A DNA stretch of 64,000 nucleotides from an uncultured Methylomirabilota bacterium. Its GTDB lineage: Bacteria > Methylomirabilota > Methylomirabilia > Methylomirabilales > 2-02-FULL-66-22. The stretch is from assembly GCA_963705305.1 (NCBI GenBank), contig OY970067.1:2528001-2592000 (forward strand). Direction: 5' to 3'. Below, piece by piece: positions 21,454 to 39,400 of the stretch (its first letter is position 1; each line of letters starts with the position of its first letter). Made by a program: the position numbers.

Positions 21454-24400
21454 TTACCCCTTTCGTCCGGGGTTTTCAAGCCAAATCGATGCCCCGGCTG
21501 CGCGTCTGTTGTGGGAGCGGGCGCGAGGCGACCTTACGCGTACGTCGCAGCGTCGCGAGAGCGCGGGGGGTACCCATCCGAAGGATGGGTCTCGGCAGAG
21601 GGCCTTTTTCAGCAGCCTGCTAGGGGTGCTTCAGCTTTCCCGTGAAGTGGCACGAGCGGCAGTCCATCATGCCGCGACTGTCTTCGACGGCCCCCCCTTG
21701 GTCGTGACAGCCCCGACACGACTGCACCTGCGCGGCGAGAAGGTGGGCGGCCTTGAAGCTTCCTTCCATGTGGCTGTTCAAGAGCTCCACGCTGTATCGC
21801 GCCACGGATGCGGCCAGCCAGGCGCACCTGTCGGCCCGTTCCTTTGAGAAGGACTTGAAGCCGGTGGCCTTGCACCATCGGCTCACCGACACATGACACA
21901 GCGGGGAATGGGCGACGGAGGGTTTGATCTCGAATCTGGGATTCTTGGGCCGGTAGTCGGGAAGCTCCTCCTGCTCATACCAGTTGAAGAGCTCGTGGAT
22001 AAGGGCGTAGGCCTGCTGTTTCTTCTGCGGGTCCAGCCCGCCGGCCACCAGAAAAATTGCCATGGAGGCCCCGTTCAACGCTCCGCAAAGCGAGGCAATG
22101 CCCGCCACGCCCCCCTCCCCGAATACCATCATCTCCATGGGAAAGAGGGTATAGGGATGCCCCACCGCCTCGCGAAGCCCCCCGATGATCCCGTCAAATG
22201 CCGCGTAGCAGCACGCTCCCTTATAGTAGCCTGCATATCCCCGCTCTGCGGCGGCCTGGGGATCCAGTTTCTGGTAGGGCCACGGAAGGGTGGGGGAGGT
22301 CTCGGCGTCCTGGACGGCCCGGGCATTTCGGGCTGCGGCCGGGGTGAGGGCGATCGCCCCGGTGGCCATGGCCAGCATCTTCAGCACATCTCTCCGTTGA
22401 CCGTTCATTTCTTTCTCCTTGCTGTGACTCGTTTTCCCCCACGATCTGCGAGGCCGGGATTCCGTTGCCGCCCGGGTTCGCCGCTGCAGTCCCTGACCTT
22501 CGCGTCCGGTCCGTCGCGGACCTGAACCCCATGTCCCGGAAGAATTGTCACCGGTGAGCCGACGAGATGCCGTCGAGGTGAGGTTCTGAAGTTCGGGGTG
22601 TGGGTCAGAACGCGCCGAACTCGCTGGGCAGCGGCTGCACCTCCTCCTGGTAGATCTTCTCCGATTTGGTTCCTTCGTTGTGGCACCCGCCGCAGTAGCC
22701 CAGGTCGGGGCGCTTGAGCGCCGGATCGGCCGCTCTTTTCACATGGCAGGGAATGCACATCTTGTGCATGGCGTCCCGGTAGCTGGGCGCCCACGGGCTG
22801 TCGAATGTCTTGACGACGGGATTGACCGCCATCATGTCCTTCCGATGGCACTCTTCGCAGGTTGTGGTCGCCGCCACCCGCAACGGCCTCTCTTCGCCGT
22901 GGCATTTGACGCAGGAGAGGTTTCCCTCAAGATCCGCCACGTGGGCCTCGTGATTGAAAATGTCGGTGGCGGTGTACATGGAGCGGTGGCACTCGCTGCA
23001 CGGCGTTCCAACGTCCCCCGCCTTGTGGAGGTGGTGGCAGAGTCCGCAGGCCTTTTCCCCTCCAAGGTCCTTCTGGTGCTGCGTGTGGTCGAAGTACACA
23101 TACTGGGGTGCGTCGCCCATCCTGAGGACGTCGCTGCCGCGGGCACGCTGCGCCGCCAGCTGGACGAACGGCTCAGTCTTGGGTGCCAGGGTCAGGCCCA
23201 GGCTCATGGGCAGCACGAACAGCATGGAGTACACCTTGGCGGCCTTTCGCCAGTCTTCGCCCAACCAGACCTGGGTGAAGGGGGCAAACCGGGGGAGGGC
23301 CTCTGCGGCGGCCTCGCGCTCCCGTTCGATCTTTCCCAGCGCCTCGGGGTCGACCGGGAAGTGCTCCTGAATGAAGAAGAACAGCAGGCCACAGGCGGAG
23401 ACGATGCCAATGCTGATGGCGAACTCCGGCCAGGCGGGAAAATAGAAAACGCGCGTCGCCCAGACTTGGCTCAGTCCTGACACATTGACCCGGTTCAGCA
23501 CGAAGCCCAGCACGGCGCAGCAGGAGACGAGCCAGACCCCCGGAGGGGACCGCCGCACGCCCGAAATGGCGTACAGCCCGATGGGGATGACCGCGGACAG
23601 GAGCATCTCGAGGATGAACAGGTTGCTCTCCCAGGTCCCCGCGGCGATCAGCCCCAGCTTGTGGTGGATCGTCAGATCCGTCATCTTGAAGGCGAGGTAA
23701 AAGAGAAGGGCCCAGGCGGAGACCTTGGCCAGCCCGCTCAGGACGGCCGGCTCGGGCGTTCGCCTGTAGACCCAGGAGATGGCGGAGTAGACGAAGATCA
23801 TCAGGTTGAGACCCATGCAGATCGAGGAGACAAAGAACAGCTCGGGCAGCAGGGGGCTGTACCAGAGCGGATGGACCCTGAAGGCCATGATGAGCAGGAG
23901 GGTGCCGAGGGTGGACTGGTGCAGGGTGGAGATCATGATGCCCAGGATCACGATGGGCAGCGACAGGGACGCCAGGAAGCGACGGACGCGCTGGAAGGGC
24001 GTGCGCTCGAGAATCACGGGCGCCACCTCGAGGGTGAGCACCGTGAGGTACAGCATGACGCACCACGAGATCTCGAAGAGGGGGGAGTGGATGTTCCAGT
24101 ACAGGATGGGGTGCCAAATATGCCACGGGAGCCCCAACTCGAAGAGGAGCCCGGTGGCCGCAGCACCGTACCCCAGAAAGCCCGTCAGGATGGCATACCG
24201 CGCCACGACGTGGTATTTCTCGCGGTGGAAGATATGCACCACCGCGGCCACGGTGAACGCCACGGCCGAGAGGGCGATGACGCCCATCTCGTTGAAGCCG
24301 ACCCACAGCCCCCAGGGGGTCGTGTCGGAGAGGGCGGTGGAGACGCCCAGGCCCATGGTGAACCGGTTGATGGCCGCGGCGGCCCCCAGGCCGGCGAGGA

Positions 24401-36400: not shown

Positions 36401-39400
36401 GGGGCCCGATATCGGTCTTCCGCTGGACAGTGGTCTCGGCCATGGGTGGATTCTCCCCTGTGAGGGCGCCGCGTCCGCCGGGGGGGGCGCCGGATCATGC
36501 CTAGGCCTGGGTCGGCTCCTCTTCCAAATATTCCTCGTAGAAGACGTACGGATTCTCGCGCGGATGGGCCACCATCTCGGGCTGGGGCTCGACCCCGATG
36601 GCCTCCAGGAAGTTCCCCAGGCCGACCCGCTGGATGAACTCGCCCACGCGCTCGCGGTTCTTGCCCTCCTCGGACCACACATCGATGATCTTGTCCGCCA
36701 GTTTCTTGATCTCGGTGTAGGGGGGCTCCATCTTCATGAAGGGCACCAGGACGGACGAGAGCATGGCGCCCTGCAGGATCGGCGCCTTGGCGCCGATGAG
36801 CAGGGTGGCGCCGCGCTCCGGACCCGGGCGCAGGGCCTTGGGCATCACGTTGATGCAGTGCATACACTTGACACACCACTCGTTGTCGATGAACAGTTCT
36901 TTGCCGTCCCAGGCCATGCACTTGCTGGGGCACTGCGCGATCACCTCGGCCTGGATGTCGATCCCGTCGGTGGCGTACTGCCGGACGGCTGCCGGATCGA
37001 TCTGGATGGGCCCGCGCCAAGTGCCGATGATGCTCATGTCGGCGCGGGCGATGGCCGCCACGCAGTCGTTGGCGCAGCCGGAGGCCTTGAACTTGAACTT
37101 GTAGGGGAACGAGGGGCGGTGCATCGAGTCCTGGTAGTACATGGTCAGGTCATAGATGCATTGCAGCGTGTCGAAGCAGGCCCATTCGCAGCGAGCCGGC
37201 CCCACACAGCAGCTGGGGGTTCGGACCACCGAGCCGGACCCTCCCAGGTCGAACCCGTTCTGGGTGAGATCGCTGAATGTCGGCTCCAGCTCTTCCGTGC
37301 GCGTCCCCAGCAGGATGATGTCGCCCGTGGACCCGTGCATATTGGTGAGGCCGGAGCCGTGCCGCTCCCACAGGTCGCAGACGGCGCGCAACGCCTCCGT
37401 CGTGTAAAACCAGGCGGCCGGATGGTTCACCCGCAGGGTGTGGAAGTGCGCCACGTGGGGAAACTGCTCGGGGAGATCGCAGTACCGCCCGATGACCCCG
37501 CCGCCATATCCGCGAACCCCGACGATCCCGCCGTGCTTCCAATGCCCGATCTTCTGAGCGTAGGAGAGTTCCAGCAGGCCGAGGACGTCGCGGGACATGG
37601 CGTTGCTTTCGGCGGCGCGCTTGATCTCCTTGACGAAACTGGGCCAGGGCCCCGATTCCAACTGATCCAGCTGTGGTGTCTTGGGCAGCGACGTGTCATC
37701 GGCCATGAGTCAGCACCTCCCTCGTTGGTGACCCGAACCTGGCGTTCAGCGCATCTCGATGTACCCGCAGGGACACTGCTCCGCGCACTTCTTGCAACCC
37801 GTGCAGAACTCCAGCTTGATCCGGTAGGGCTGGCCGGCCTCCGCCGGCTTTTGGATGGCCCGCTCCTGGCAGTACTGCCAGCAGGTATCGCACTCGAAGC
37901 ACATGCCGCAGCTCAGGCAGCGCTTGGCCTCGGCCAGCGCCTGGTCCTCGGCGAGGCCGATGGTCACCTCGCGGTCCGGATCGGCGAACCGCTCCTCCAC
38001 CGGGATCGTCGCCGCGACGGACCGCGGCGCCTTGGGGTAGAATTCCGGTCGCAGCGTCTCCTTGGTGGCCACGGGCGGGGGTGCCGGCTCGGGCTCTTGG
38101 ATGCCGCGGAGCCGCCGATGAATGGTCTCGGCGACGCGACGACCCCGGAAGACGGCCGTGCTCACGATCCCCAGATCCAGGTCGTCCGGCGCGGCGAACG
38201 TGCCGGGGACGGCCGTCTCCCCGTGCGCGTCGGTGGAGACAGATCCTCCCTCGCCCCGTAGGGACTCCAGGCCGACCGTGTCCCGCTCGGCCTTGCCCGC
38301 CACGATGATCGTGCTGGCCGGCAGGAAGAGCTCTGCTTCGGCCCCCCGGGGCTGTCCCGCGTCGGCAACGCGTCGGCAGGTAAGGCCGGTTGCTCGCCCT
38401 GCTTCCATGCGAACGGCCGAAGGAACCGCCTGGCCCTGGATGGCGACCCCCTCGCGCTTGGCCTCTTCGATCTCCTGCTTGCCGGCGGGCATGTCCTCCG
38501 CCTTGCGGCGCGATACGATCGTGACGTGCGCCCCCAGGCGGCGTGCCACGCGGGCCGCATCCAGGGCCGTATCGCCCCCCCCGACCACCAGAACCTCTGT
38601 TCCCACCTCCAGGGGCTCGCCGCCGTTCATGCGGTGCAGGAGCTCGGCCGCGGACAGGACGTTGGGGGCGTCCCCGCCGGGCAGATCCAGGACGACCCCG
38701 CGGTGCGCCCGGATGCCGACGAAAATTGCGGCGTACTCCTGGCGGAGGGCATCCAGTGTGATGTCCTTGCCGAGGGCGCTGTTGCATTGAAAGGCCACCC
38801 CGAGGGTTTCCAGGCGGGCAATCTCTCCGTCCAGCACCGGGCGGGGCAGGCGGAAGGCTGGGATCCCGTACCGCAGCATGCCGCCGAGCTTGGGGAAGGC
38901 CTCGAACACCGTGACCGGATAGCCGCGCCGCGCCAACTGGTAGGCACAGGAGAGGCCTGCAGGTCCGGAACCGATGACCGCGATTCGCTCGGTCTGTCGT
39001 TCCTCGGTGATCGAGCGCAGGGGGAGCTGCCGCTGGAGGGCGTAGTCCCCGACGGCCCGTTCGAGGCAGTTGATCGCGACCGGCTCGTCGACCTGTAGGC
39101 GGCTGCATTGCAACTCGCACTGGTGAGGGCAGGCGCGGCCGCAGCTCGCCGGCAGCGGGTTCTTGTCGGCGAGGAGATAGAACGCCTCCTCCATCGCCTG
39201 GGAGAGAGATTTTCCGTGCTTCTCCGCCAGGGCCAGCGTCATGATGACCGAGCGAATGTCCTGATGGTTGGGGCAGGCCTTGGAGCAGGCCGGGGTCCTC
39301 TCGCTGAAGTACGGGCGCATGGGCGAACCGCCCCGGTCGCTTGGTGGCTGGCCTCCCCCGGATCCGAGTTTGCGCACCTTCTTGACGACAACGGCCACGC

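Follow-up and report, generated by a model that had tools for sequence, protein, structure and literature searches.

A reductive-type Dsr island with dsrD and dsrL in a Methylomirabilales genome that lacks sulfate activation genes

The DNA analysed here, a 64,000-nt stretch referred to as the window, carries a dsr island at 21620-41855 on the minus strand. We put at roughly 60% the probability that this island is a reductive bacterial-type Dsr system serving as terminal reductase for sulfite, not sulfate, in this Methylomirabilales organism. Searches of the whole genome (one contig, 5,645,311 bp, completeness 98.9) support the conclusion that its complete Dsr system can reduce sulfite and that it cannot activate sulfate. 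Since the sulfite island is complete and no genes leading from sulfate to sulfite were found, the organism probably lives on sulfite, either imported or derived from organic sulfonates.

The dsr-island genes named in an earlier note on this DNA were found in place; the full order is yeiH-like, HTH_8, dsrL, dsrA, dsrB, an 85-aa gene, dsrN, dsrC, dsrT-like, dsrMKJOP and an Hmc/Tmc-like complex. Every gene and control region of the window described below is on the minus strand, and curated NCBIfam cut-offs in bits were the yardstick for gene identities. DsrA (36501..37706) scored 572 bits with TIGR02064 (cut-off 392.85) and was placed in the reductive bacterial type by trees as well; DsrB (35361..36443) scored 525.9 bits with TIGR02066 (cut-off 341.5). 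DsrN (33580..35076), a siroheme amidase of the CobB family, reached 430 bits with NF002204 (cut-off 254; match class CobB-type a,c-diamide synthase), and its gene is located 3′ of dsrD as in relatives. DsrC (33184..33504; PF04358, 130.9 bits; DsrC/TusE family, 121 bits, cut-off 53.5) keeps both C-terminal cysteines, 11 residues apart, the second being the penultimate residue. The gene separating dsrC from dsrM encodes an RsbRD_N domain protein (32596..33171; PF14361, 60.1 bits), which we take to be DsrT; most related loci have it in this place too. The five subunits of the DsrMKJOP membrane complex (27646..32589, coordinates from likely start codons) were all above the equivalog cut-offs: DsrM (31597-32589; 487.8 bits, cut-off 300), DsrK (29974-31593; 717.8, cut-off 400), DsrJ with three CxxCH motifs (29586-29981; 157.5, cut-off 100), DsrO (28822-29592; 303, cut-off 200) and DsrP (27646-28812; 456.3, cut-off 350). 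These scores bear out the earlier inventory of dsrAB, dsrC, dsrN and dsrMKJOP.

A second membrane redox module (22605..27629) follows, with HmcF/DsrK-like (26127-27629), HmcE/TmcC-like (25248-26105) and HmcB-like (24433-25251) subunits and an HmcC-like NrfD subunit with a fused hexaheme cytochrome domain (22605-24443; six CxxCH motifs). Its counterparts are 53-68% identical in an Acidobacteriota locus (L033) and 60-78% identical in the congener G019. The four subunits match HmcF, HmcE, HmcB and HmcC, but their scores are far under the NCBIfam cut-offs (216/750, 118/275, 227/420 and 245/550 bits, respectively) and HmcA is absent, so that the earlier name, Hmc-like complex, holds as a loose label. 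The last gene of the island (21620..22408) encodes a split-Soret-like diheme cytochrome c with a C_GCAxxG_C_C domain and two CxxCH motifs (NF047622, 198.8 bits, cut-off 400).

The earlier note had named phylogeny as the check on the direction of the system. In the DsrAB tree, the genus formed one clade (8/8 rows, SH-aLRT 100) within a 52-row reductive-type clade (99) that excludes all 27 DsrH-linked oxidative-type rows. In the oxidative-type genomes tested, dsrH was located 4-5 kb downstream of dsrA (5/5); no DsrH was found in the genome studied here and no dsrEFH at the locus. We infer that the system works in the reductive direction in vivo.

The 85-aa protein g02446 (35093..35350), whose gene has a GGAGG ribosome-binding site, had been noted as giving no DsrD Pfam hit. 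It has indeed no match to PF08679, and none of its 85 homologs, among them a 'Candidatus Sulfotelmatobacter' member, has any Pfam domain; it is still a DsrD homolog, a divergent winged-helix one, as indicated by profile-profile comparison, synteny and a predicted complex. Comparison with 18 canonical DsrD by hhalign gave probabilities of 92.9-95.1%, and a homolog follows dsrB in 67 of the 74 related loci having room there. The AF2 model (pLDDT 84.5) consists of three helices and a hairpin and matches 1ucr with Z 8.0. Binding of g02446 to DsrAB is predicted, with a complex score of 0.73 (runs 0.70-0.74; best control 0.00), at least 89% of contacts in common between runs and a partner pLDDT of at least 83. 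The score mark was reached by 116/157 solved complexes and 2/215 mismatched pairs, counts that are rough because own alignments were used. With g02446 as DsrD, the cluster is of the already described dsrABD + dsrL-2 kind.

The DsrL-like iron-sulfur flavoprotein g02449 (550 aa; 37746..39398) contains the Pfam domains Fer4_20, Pyr_redox_2 and C-terminal Fer4, with Cys motifs and a C-terminal 2x[4Fe-4S] region. Its GTG start, with the ribosome-binding site AAAGGAGA, is kept in eight of the nine genus loci that were aligned; for G019 the aligned row stops short of the start codon. g02449 scored 506.1 bits with NF009410 (cut-off 516) and has a single paralog in the genome (31%). The domains agree with those published by Loeffler et al. 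as criteria, and the reciprocal best full-length match was a dsr-linked DsrL in the genomes of four out of five relatives; these sequence comparisons support g02449 as DsrL, orthologous to dsr-linked DsrL-2, in line with the earlier label. The assignment stands for the DsrL-2 domain architecture, but not for the YRR NADP motif, which is replaced by SRR at ORF residues 334-336, so that use of NADPH is not assured. YRR was present in 47/47 outside DsrL and was lost in this sub-lineage; of the phosphate-binding triad, both arginines remain. dsrL is upstream of dsrA in 9/9 genus loci and downstream in 51/51 outside loci.

The presence of DsrL also bears on an oxidative or disproportionating system, in which DsrC-bound sulfur would be turned into sulfite, with DsrL passing electrons on to NAD(P)+, DsrMKJOP passing them to quinone and the YeiH-like protein exporting the sulfite. 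The SRR motif could shift DsrL towards NAD+ (PMC7596348), the YeiH family carries an exporter annotation, and the genome contains oxidases, sulfite-oxidase-family proteins and DsrE2/DsrE-like genes adjoining a Qmo-like set. According to Loeffler et al. (PMC7596348), direction is not assignable from sequence in DsrL-2 organisms, and organisms that have reductive-type DsrAB and DsrD, such as Desulfurivibrio, are capable of sulfur oxidation or disproportionation (PMC10591310, PMC7596348). We nevertheless consider this direction unlikely: the DsrAB type, the DsrD predicted to bind it, the missing dsrH and dsrEFH and the two arginines of the triad speak against it, and the combination of DsrD, reductive DsrAB and neighbouring DsrL-2 is taken as reductive by Diao et al. 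(PMC10591310).

The earlier claim that the genome has no ATP sulfurylase, APS reductase, APS kinase or PAPS reductase was confirmed by six-frame searches of the whole genome. The best scores were 14.3 bits for sat (PF01747), 11.5 bits for CysD/CysH (PF01507) and 45 bits for aprA (TIGR02061, cut-off 641.75). PF01583 gave one match that formally passes the cut-off of 21.1 (19.9 bits by itself, 23.3 together with neighbours); this match was rejected as an APS kinase because it covers only the P-loop part, profile positions 3-43 of 152, in a 456-aa frame. "Sulfite-only" describes this genome, but it is no lineage trait, since three of the nine dsr-bearing congeners have aprBA-qmoABC-sat inside the same island. 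The present genome and G019 are collinear up to an epimerase and again from a sigma-54 regulator, and G019 824,273-866,732 has no collinear counterpart here; the junction lacking this ~43-kb block is at 44256..44496 (no strand), between window positions 44255 and 44497. The G019 block encodes aprB (210 bits, cut-off 135.65), aprA (915, cut-off 641.75), qmoC (405, cut-off 300) and sat (464, cut-off 387). The island occurs in two forms, one with the block, which would serve sulfate respiration, and one without it, as here, which would serve sulfite only.

The complete lack of assimilatory sulfate activation is also what would be seen in an aerobe that desulfonates sulfonates and uses Dsr to turn toxic sulfite into biosynthetic sulfide. 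Oxidases are encoded, and 15/21 genus genomes are without PAPS reductase. However, this enzyme is also missing in 7/12 dsr-lacking congeners, indicating that Dsr is not what compensates its absence; a two-domain assimilatory-type sulfite/nitrite reductase is encoded at C1:3232443-3233723, and two membrane redox complexes (11 genes) with a dedicated sigma-54 regulon exceed the needs of assimilation. Such a detoxifying or assimilatory role in place of energy conservation is quite improbable.

The island begins with a YeiH-family membrane protein ("putative sulfate export transporter"; 40350..41855; PF03601, 75.5 bits; TIGR00698, 33.8 bits, under the cut-off of 232.6), a candidate transporter of sulfite or sulfur anions. 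Its gene is upstream of dsrL in 7/8 congener loci, the G012 contig stopping at dsrL. The conserved yeiH control region (41873..41999) has a sigma-54-type -24/-12 element, CGGCAAGGTCCTTGCT (41873-41888), and the palindrome GTTACC-N4-GGTAAC at 41984-41999; the sigma-54 motif precedes yeiH here and also in the loci of G019, G022, G006, G015 and G010. The control region of the dsrL operon (39478..39605), with the sigma-54-type element TGGCAAATGCCTTGCC (39478-39493) and the same palindrome at 39559-39574 and 39590-39605, is kept in 9/9 genus loci, while its flanks are not conserved. These three palindromes are the only ones in the 5.6-Mb genome. A stand-alone Fis-type HTH_8 protein of 60 aa (39591..39773; PF02954, 57.5 bits), conserved 5′ of dsrL in congeners, shares 26 of 50 residues (52%) with the C-terminal HTH of a sigma-54-dependent response regulator (44497-45840; REC, Sigma54_activat, HTH_8). 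This regulator and a histidine kinase read in two frames (45848-47303; HisKA, HATPase_c, HAMP), together at 44497..47303, are candidate regulators of the island.

As the earlier note stated, the genome has a SuyAB-like pair of two subunits at C1:165547-166995; its relatives at 87-91% bear the JGI name (2R)-sulfolactate sulfo-lyase beta. SuyB orthologs (at least 68% identity) occur in 7/9 dsr-bearing and 0/12 dsr-lacking congeners, in two sequence lineages; with kinship allowed for, this co-occurrence comes down to only two well-supported independent pairs. In G019, suyAB is placed between yeiH and dsrL, adjoining dsrL, but it is flanked by transposases, so the adjacency could be accidental. 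Organosulfonates as the sulfite source of Dsr thus have circumstantial backing from co-occurrence and one physical adjacency, and the earlier proposal of organosulfonate respiration is kept at that strength. Alternatively, Dsr may respire imported sulfite, taken up as such or coming from inorganic sulfur compounds, with suyAB an unrelated carbon-source gene. It is yeiH, not suyAB, that is co-located with dsrL and has regulatory sites in common with it; in this genome 2.4 Mb separate suyAB from the island, and suyAB has none of the island's palindromes or regulatory sites and is outside its sigma-54 regulon. The neighbours of suyAB vary (MFS and quinone oxidoreductase genes here, aminotransferase and amino-acid ABC transporter genes in G010/G017), SuyB is missing in two dsr-bearing congeners (G012, 70% complete; G014, 94% complete), and no Xsc was above the cut-off in 21/21 genomes. 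Against this stand the restriction of SuyB to dsr-bearing congeners and the family name of YeiH, which denotes export. We hold sulfite of such origin, and not from organosulfonates, to be possible, though doubtful.

If the proteins act as is known for their families, sulfite reduction by the island could proceed as follows. DsrAB, activated by the divergent DsrD, would together with DsrC convert sulfite into a DsrC trisulfide, receiving NAD(P)H electrons through DsrL. DsrMKJOP would use quinol or periplasmic electrons to reduce the trisulfide, releasing sulfide, and the Hmc/Tmc-like module, which has periplasmic haems, would perhaps do so too. Since sat, aprBA, qmoABC and every gene of assimilatory activation are missing, the sulfite must have another source, conceivably sulfolactate cleaved by SuyAB in the cytoplasm or uptake, possibly via the YeiH-family transporter, whose gene has the same promoter type and palindromes as the island. 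Because haem-copper oxidases are encoded, sulfite respiration would be facultative. Three sulfite-oxidase-family proteins, far under the SorA/SoxC cut-offs, might dispose of sulfite otherwise.

Organosulfonate-fed sulfite respiration was already proposed for peatland and soil Acidobacteria SbA4/SbA5 (Hausmann et al. 2018, PMC6018796), and Methylomirabilales would be a new lineage for it. As described there, SbA4/SbA5 share with this genome reductive dsrAB, dsrD, dsrN, dsrC, dsrL, dsrT, dsrMKJOP, suyAB and aerobic respiration genes, and the absence of a complete sat/apr set. They belong to a different phylum; here dsrL is upstream of dsrA, DsrL has SRR and not YRR, and the Hmc/Tmc-like module and the YeiH-family gene are attached. 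In Desulfovibrionaceae (Bilophila wadsworthia, Desulfovibrio sp. DF1, Taurinivorans muris), described as strict anaerobes with experimental proof of organosulfonate respiration, DsrAB likewise has as its electron acceptor the sulfite set free from a sulfonate within the cell, in strain DF1 by SuyAB; some of them use glycyl-radical lyases or Xsc, of which no match above the cut-off was found here. Clusters of dsrABD + dsrL-2(C) are reported from Zixibacteria, Kapabacteria, Acidobacteriota, Gemmatimonadota and others (Loeffler et al. 2020, PMC7596348; Diao et al. 2023, PMC10591310). Reductive types of other phyla have DsrA 61-75% identical to that studied here, with the same gene families, the same DsrL domain architecture and a nearly identical order 3′ of dsrB, but aprA was present in 5/5 tested outside relatives and is missing here, and YRR is lost in this sub-lineage. 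The early-diverging DsrAB of Methylomirabilota/Rokubacteria (Anantharaman et al. 2018, as cited in PMC10591310), found in 5/159 genomes of another family, shares the phylum and the succession of dsrAB and dsrC-type genes, but its DsrA is only 37-39% identical, it has no DsrD between dsrB and dsrC, and a branch of ~2 substitutions per site separates it from the present clade. The review PMC10591310 describes Methylomirabilota as lacking dsrD and dsrL, the gap to which the earlier note had pointed; this genus has both. The comparison supports the view that the phylum has a second Dsr type, with dsrD and dsrL, in an island that was acquired horizontally by this genus.

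The window has a G+C content of 66% and holds many spurious ORFs; filtering by third-position G+C left a single run of genes on the minus strand, whose identities were assigned from Pfam and NCBIfam profile matches. The most upstream gene of the run encodes a YeiH-family membrane protein (40350-41855, minus strand) and is followed by genes for a 60-amino-acid HTH_8 protein (39591-39773) and a GltD/NfnB-like iron-sulfur flavoprotein with an additional C-terminal di-cluster ferredoxin (37746-39398), hereafter DsrL. Then come, from upstream to downstream, dsrA, dsrB, an 85-amino-acid ORF (35093-35350), dsrN, dsrC, an RsbRD_N-domain gene and dsrM, K, J, O and P. 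The RsbRD_N-domain gene lies between dsrC and dsrM, which we take to be the position of dsrT. DsrA scored 572 bits against an equivalog cut-off of 392.85 and DsrB 525.9 against 341.5, and the five adjacent DsrMKJOP subunits each exceeded their NCBIfam equivalog cut-offs. Both conserved C-terminal cysteines that set DsrC apart from TusE/RspA are present, and DsrJ has three haem motifs. Downstream of dsrP are four genes similar to HmcF/DsrK, HmcE/TmcC, HmcB and HmcC, the HmcC-like one fused to a six-haem domain, and a split-Soret-like dihaem cytochrome is the last of the run. The earlier note had described an Hmc-like complex here. The four subunits do resemble HmcB, C, E and F, but all fall far under the cut-offs, and 16-haem HmcA was not found in the module. 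Judged by its subunits, this second redox module probably works like the Hmc/Tmc type, yet is no member of the Hmc complex. Farther along the same strand, at 15212-17829, lie three genes of a 2-oxoacid:ferredoxin oxidoreductase (POR_N, TPP_enzyme_C, POR), separated from the island by a thioredoxin gene (19060-19413) and thiC (19555-21453).

As to DsrAB, 594 relatives in species-representative genomes were confirmed, of which the best 80 were 61-74% identical and carried the names of Zixibacteria, Ignavibacteria/Kapabacteria, Elusimicrobia, Acidobacteria, Gemmatimonadota, Planctomycetota, Myxococcota, Thermodesulfovibrionales and Syntrophobacterales; Methylomirabilota was absent among these 80. 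Of 251 genomes in the phylum of the window, 14 matched: nine of the 21 genomes of the genus at 79-86% identity, five of 159 in another family at 37-39%, and none of 71 in the remaining families. The five distant matches have a dsrAB-dsrC arrangement with no dsrD. The suggestion that the phylum holds a second Dsr type was upheld. Public proteins 84-85% identical to those of the window carry the label 'Candidatus Methylomirabilis sp.' MAGs, in keeping with the stated taxonomy. In an 87-row tree of DsrA+DsrB, the genus forms one clade (support 100) that is sister (99) to 64 rows from environmental lineages, and the other Methylomirabilota type sits on a very long branch.

The direction of the pathway, which the earlier note had left untested by phylogeny, was addressed with oxidative references. 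In the phylum of a Kapabacteria locus 66 of 401 genomes matched, with two of them at 71-74% identity, 66 other full or near-full-length ones at 45-48% and three fragments at 45-49%; dsrH lay 4-5 kb downstream of dsrA, an oxidative arrangement, in all five of the 45-48% genomes tested. When 27 DsrH-linked rows were added to the tree, the oxidative rows formed one clade (100) and the genus fell inside a reductive clade of 52 rows (SH-aLRT 99) holding none of the 27, in a quick maximum-likelihood search with oxidative rows from one phylum. DsrH was not found in the host genome. The phylum of locus L013, which also holds the Zixibacteria locus, was likewise sampled for oxidative DsrAB and yielded reductive types only (103 of 285 genomes). 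Loci labelled Ignavibacteriales (L009, L013, L016 and L035) group with Zixibacteria in the DsrAB tree, and the genome of L013 (G316) is classed in the phylum of the Zixibacteria locus L005, at odds with its record label. The G+C content of the island is 0.655 against 0.661 for the genome, and its GC3 is 0.873 against 0.874 in the flanks. Since composition thus carries no sign of recent transfer, the transfer of the island was not recent.

The 85-amino-acid gene starts 10 nt past the dsrB stop codon. The earlier note had recorded no DsrD match for it, and this Pfam miss is true: PF08679 gave no match at E ≤ 10, and the gathering score was not reached. Searches of PDB chains also returned nothing, with a best E of 0.61 for the single sequence and 0.23 for the profile. 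The protein belongs to an unannotated family of 85 clusters, and of nine proteins scanned with PF08679 three, its Thermodesulfovibrionales members, scored 22.2, 19.4 and 13.8 bits, a little under the cut-off of 24.2. A homolog follows dsrB in 67 of the 74 related loci with room for one, within 500 nt in 65 of them. The seven loci lacking it are three from Acidobacteria, in which dsrL follows dsrB, three from Syntrophobacterales and one from Desulfobulbaceae, where the canonical DsrD is so distant that tblastn does not reach it. The family was aligned by hhalign with 18 canonical DsrD proteins, taken from PF08679 loci in 23 of 61 genomes of the phylum of the Desulfobulbaceae locus. The probability was 92.9-95.1% (E from 3.6e-7 to 3e-8) and the alignment ran over the full length, residues 7-82 against 2-71. 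The gene is a DsrD homolog in spite of the Pfam miss.

The AlphaFold (AF2) model of the protein (pLDDT 84.5) has three helices and a hairpin in a winged-helix fold and superposes on Desulfovibrio vulgaris DsrD, 1ucr_A, with Z 8.0 and an rmsd of 3.1 Å over 69 of 74 residues. The fold match is not specific, because 1ucr_A is just rank 49 among winged helices, with 48 others equal or better; a Foldseek search of the PDB with the model returned generic winged-helix regulators only, at E ≥ 8e-3. The predicted complex of DsrA, DsrB and the 85-amino-acid protein scored 0.73 and the best control 0.00, a mark that 116 of 157 solved complexes attain but two of 215 mismatches also do, counts that are rough owing to custom alignments. 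The prediction runs had at least 89% of contacts in common, with a partner pLDDT of at least 83, and the modelled interface would place the family-invariant K51, Y65 and S71 against invariant segments of DsrA. Acidobacterial members of the family are already named DsrD in sections of Hausmann et al. (PMC6018796). The gene is a dsrD, of a subfamily that Pfam misses. As the whole subfamily escapes the standard DsrD models, surveys that call direction by the presence of dsrD will misclassify such genomes.

The earlier note had also proposed a DsrL-like electron input beside dsrA. According to sections of Loeffler et al. 2020 (PMC7596348), a DsrL gene should be complete and occur in an organism with dsrAB, its domains should follow a fixed order, and it should not be linked to POR/VOR genes. 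The window gene is a complete 550-residue ORF immediately upstream of dsrA. Its domains follow the fixed order, with Fer4_20 at 73-161, Pyr_redox_2 at 176-443 and Fer4 at 537-587 of the 588-residue ORF; the Cys clusters are at 532-548 and 570-582, and the linker is about 60-90 residues against about 100 in those sections. Its neighbours are dsrA and the HTH_8 gene, and the POR-like genes are 20 kb off. A dsr-cluster DsrL was the best and sole full-length match of the protein in four of five relatives' genomes; none was found in the fifth, from Zixibacteria. The host genome has one paralog, distant at 31% identity. On these grounds the gene is a DsrL, as proposed.

DsrL-2 is defined in the same source by a YRR motif in the NAD(P) domain, in place of which the window protein has SRR. 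YRR occurs in 52 of 56 aligned DsrL, that is in all 47 from outside the genus and in five of nine within it; SRR is present in the window and in congeners G012 and G010, and ASR in G014. These four form one subclade (SH-aLRT 98), and the window protein is still closest to the relatives' DsrL-2, in a tree that holds no DsrL-1 references. A tree rooted on the genome's own GltD-like paralog was set aside as a long-branch artefact. The gene lies upstream of dsrA in all nine genus loci and downstream in all 51 outside loci. The SRR and ASR variants offer a test of the proposed DsrL cofactor rule.

Six-frame profile searches of the single 5.65-Mb contig (completeness 98.9) found no ATP sulfurylase (best 14.3 bits), no member of the PAPS-reductase/CysD family (best 11.5 bits) and no AprA (45 bits at best, cut-off 641.75). 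The lone formal pass for APS kinase, at 19.9 bits, spans just the P-loop of a 456-amino-acid frame and was rejected. Besides dsrAB, the sole NIR_SIR protein in the genome is a two-domain enzyme of the assimilatory type. The canonical set for dissimilatory sulfate reduction (sat, aprBA, qmoABC) is missing, and the earlier observation of Dsr genes without sulfate activation is therefore confirmed. A QmoC-like gene (186 bits, cut-off 300) and two HdrA-like genes at C1:2196044-2201033 are not accompanied by apr. They belong to a locus (C1:2190359-2201033) that also holds DsrE2 and DsrE-like genes, and its neighbours are a GlcD/GlcF-like pair and a class-III aminotransferase. In congener G019, genes homologous to the GlcD/GlcF-like pair (70-75% identity) are found next to yeiH within the dsr island.

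AprA is present in three of the 21 genus genomes (G015, G017 and G019), all dsr-bearing, each of which also has a sat gene scoring 265-269 bits. A higher-scoring sat (320-329 bits) occurs in dsr-bearing G012 and G014 and in dsr-lacking G003 and G004, and in G003, G004 and G012 it has a PAPS reductase gene as its neighbour on the contig. G019 is collinear with the host genome from the Hmc-like genes to an epimerase gene (window ~22600-44255), and again from a sigma-54 regulator gene (44497 onward). Between those points it carries an insert of about 43 kb that encodes aprB and aprA, two HdrA-like genes, and qmoC and sat, all above cut-offs. Within the genus aprA is limited to the other DsrAB subclade and is in no member of the window's own (G012, G014 and, by DsrA identity, G010); it is present in all five outside relatives tested. 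The sulfite-only state is a variant inside the genus. The idea that loss of apr and sat has left the island decaying was rejected, because none of its genes is broken and G010, G012 and G014 have it in the same form. RpoB pairs G010 with G017 and puts G012 near G019, in conflict with DsrAB, which groups G012 with the window; DsrA of G010 is 85% identical to that of the window against 80% for those of G017 and G019. This disagreement suggests that the island has moved between genomes of the genus, or that bins are chimeric; the RpoB tree is of a single gene and leaves out G015, G022 and G009.

A SuyAB-like pair lies 2.4 Mb from the island, beside an MFS transporter and a quinone oxidoreductase gene. 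Its adjacent genes encode 93 and 387 amino acids, the large product having GD_AH_second and GD_AH_C domains, in the two-subunit make-up (small SAF-like plus large) of the UxaA/altronate-dehydratase group. Relatives at 87-91% are named (2R)-sulfolactate sulfo-lyase beta by JGI and UxaA family hydrolase by NCBI. Orthologs at 68% identity or more are present in seven of the nine dsr-bearing and none of the 12 dsr-lacking congeners; paralogs at 32-39% are widespread. Since the host's copy resembles Sulfuricaulis/Acidiferrobacterales proteins (81%) more than it does copies of the G019 type (72-73%), there are two suy lineages. In G019, suyAB is flanked by two DDE transposase genes in the interval from yeiH to dsrL, and looks like a recent insertion next to dsrL. 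At this locus (L134, G019:C2:812492-817135) the HTH_8 gene is duplicated at 100% identity on both sides of the suyAB insert. In G010 and G017, suyAB is flanked by class-III aminotransferase, polar amino-acid ABC transporter, GntR and EamA genes, neighbours that would fit cysteate or a related amino-sulfonate.

The earlier note held that organosulfonates feed the sulfite respiration. SuyB co-occurrence and the G019 adjacency speak for this circumstantially. The raw Fisher p for dsr and suyB is 3e-4 with kinship ignored; an independent-pairs test on the RpoB tree had only two supported pairs, which puts significance out of reach. Against it stand the finding of Xsc above cut-off in none of the 21 genomes and of none of the island's regulatory sites at suyAB. 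Elsewhere in the genome (C1:1108801-1111240) a dehydrogenase of the Ldh_2 family, matched best in NCBIfam by the L-sulfolactate dehydrogenase model (275 bits against a cut-off of 500), adjoins a short sulfite-oxidase-family gene and a pyruvate-kinase-like gene. The genome has three sulfite-oxidase-family proteins, far under the SorA/SoxC cut-offs, and three haem-copper-oxidase matches. One sulfite-oxidase-family protein is a 539-amino-acid molybdoenzyme in the window (59988-61607, minus strand) with 134 bits for Oxidored_molyb and 94, 83 and 67 bits for SoxC, SorA and SorT, all far under cut-offs; of the two elsewhere, one is paired with a ferric-reductase-like (MsrQ-like) membrane protein.

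A YGGCA-N6-TTGCY element, spaced as in sigma-54 promoters, is conserved upstream of dsrL in all nine loci of the genus, and two GTTACC-N4-GGTAAC palindromes precede it. In the window this set lies at 39478-39605, and yeiH has its own copy of the element and palindrome at 41873-41999. The palindrome occurs three times in the entire 5.6-Mb genome, always upstream of dsrL or yeiH. A generic sigma-54 consensus scan gave 26 matches in the window against 23.6 expected, no window-wide enrichment, and the sigma-54 evidence is that of the conserved, positioned copies. Genes for a sigma-54 response regulator (44497-45840) and a histidine kinase abut the island. Because yeiH and the dsr operon have the element and the genome-unique palindromes in common and the regulators adjoin them, they look like one regulon. 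The HTH_8 protein of 60 amino acids matches the DNA-binding end of the response regulator at 52% identity and may compete with it for the same sites. The histidine kinase (45848-47303, minus strand) reads as two overlapping frames, HAMP at 46482-47303 and HisKA plus HATPase at 45848-46597, from either a frameshift or a miscalled start.

Taken together, the island and the missing sulfate activation were borne out, and the interpretation put on them was supported in part. We propose, tentatively and as one joint claim with roughly a one-in-five chance of being right, that the horizontally acquired island of the genus is modular. The 43-kb apr-qmo-sat block would switch between sulfate and sulfite respiration, and mobile suyAB would have been recruited repeatedly, in two lineages and once IS-borne beside dsrL, for sulfonate feeding. 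The YeiH-family transporter, under the same sigma-54/palindrome control, would be the long-sought sulfite carrier, and in the sulfite-only sub-lineage DsrL, with SRR or ASR instead of YRR, would have been retuned to another nicotinamide cofactor. The co-regulated yeiH is a testable sulfite-transport candidate for sulfite and organosulfonate respirers, and the closed genome with its congeners sets sulfate-respiring against sulfite-only forms of one island in a clean natural comparison. This gene, the DsrD subfamily missed by Pfam, the DsrL SRR variant and the modular 43-kb block are leads in their own right.

The full-text literature searched, namely main texts outside subscription journals, contained no account of Methylomirabilales with a reductive dsrABD-dsrL cluster. 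The idea of sulfite respiration fed by organosulfonates is already in print for Acidobacteria, in sections of Hausmann et al. (PMC6018796). Sections of a 2024 paper in ISME J, which deals with how Dsr-mediated sulfur oxidation originated, place the phylum with dsrD-lacking archaeal reducers and note DsrEFH in it. Sections of Diao et al. 2023 (PMC10591310) report that Methylomirabilota lacked dsrD and dsrL and had the earliest-diverging DsrAB. The present island corrects the generalisation that the phylum lacks both genes and adds one Methylomirabilota order to the lineages with a reductive dsrABD-dsrL system.
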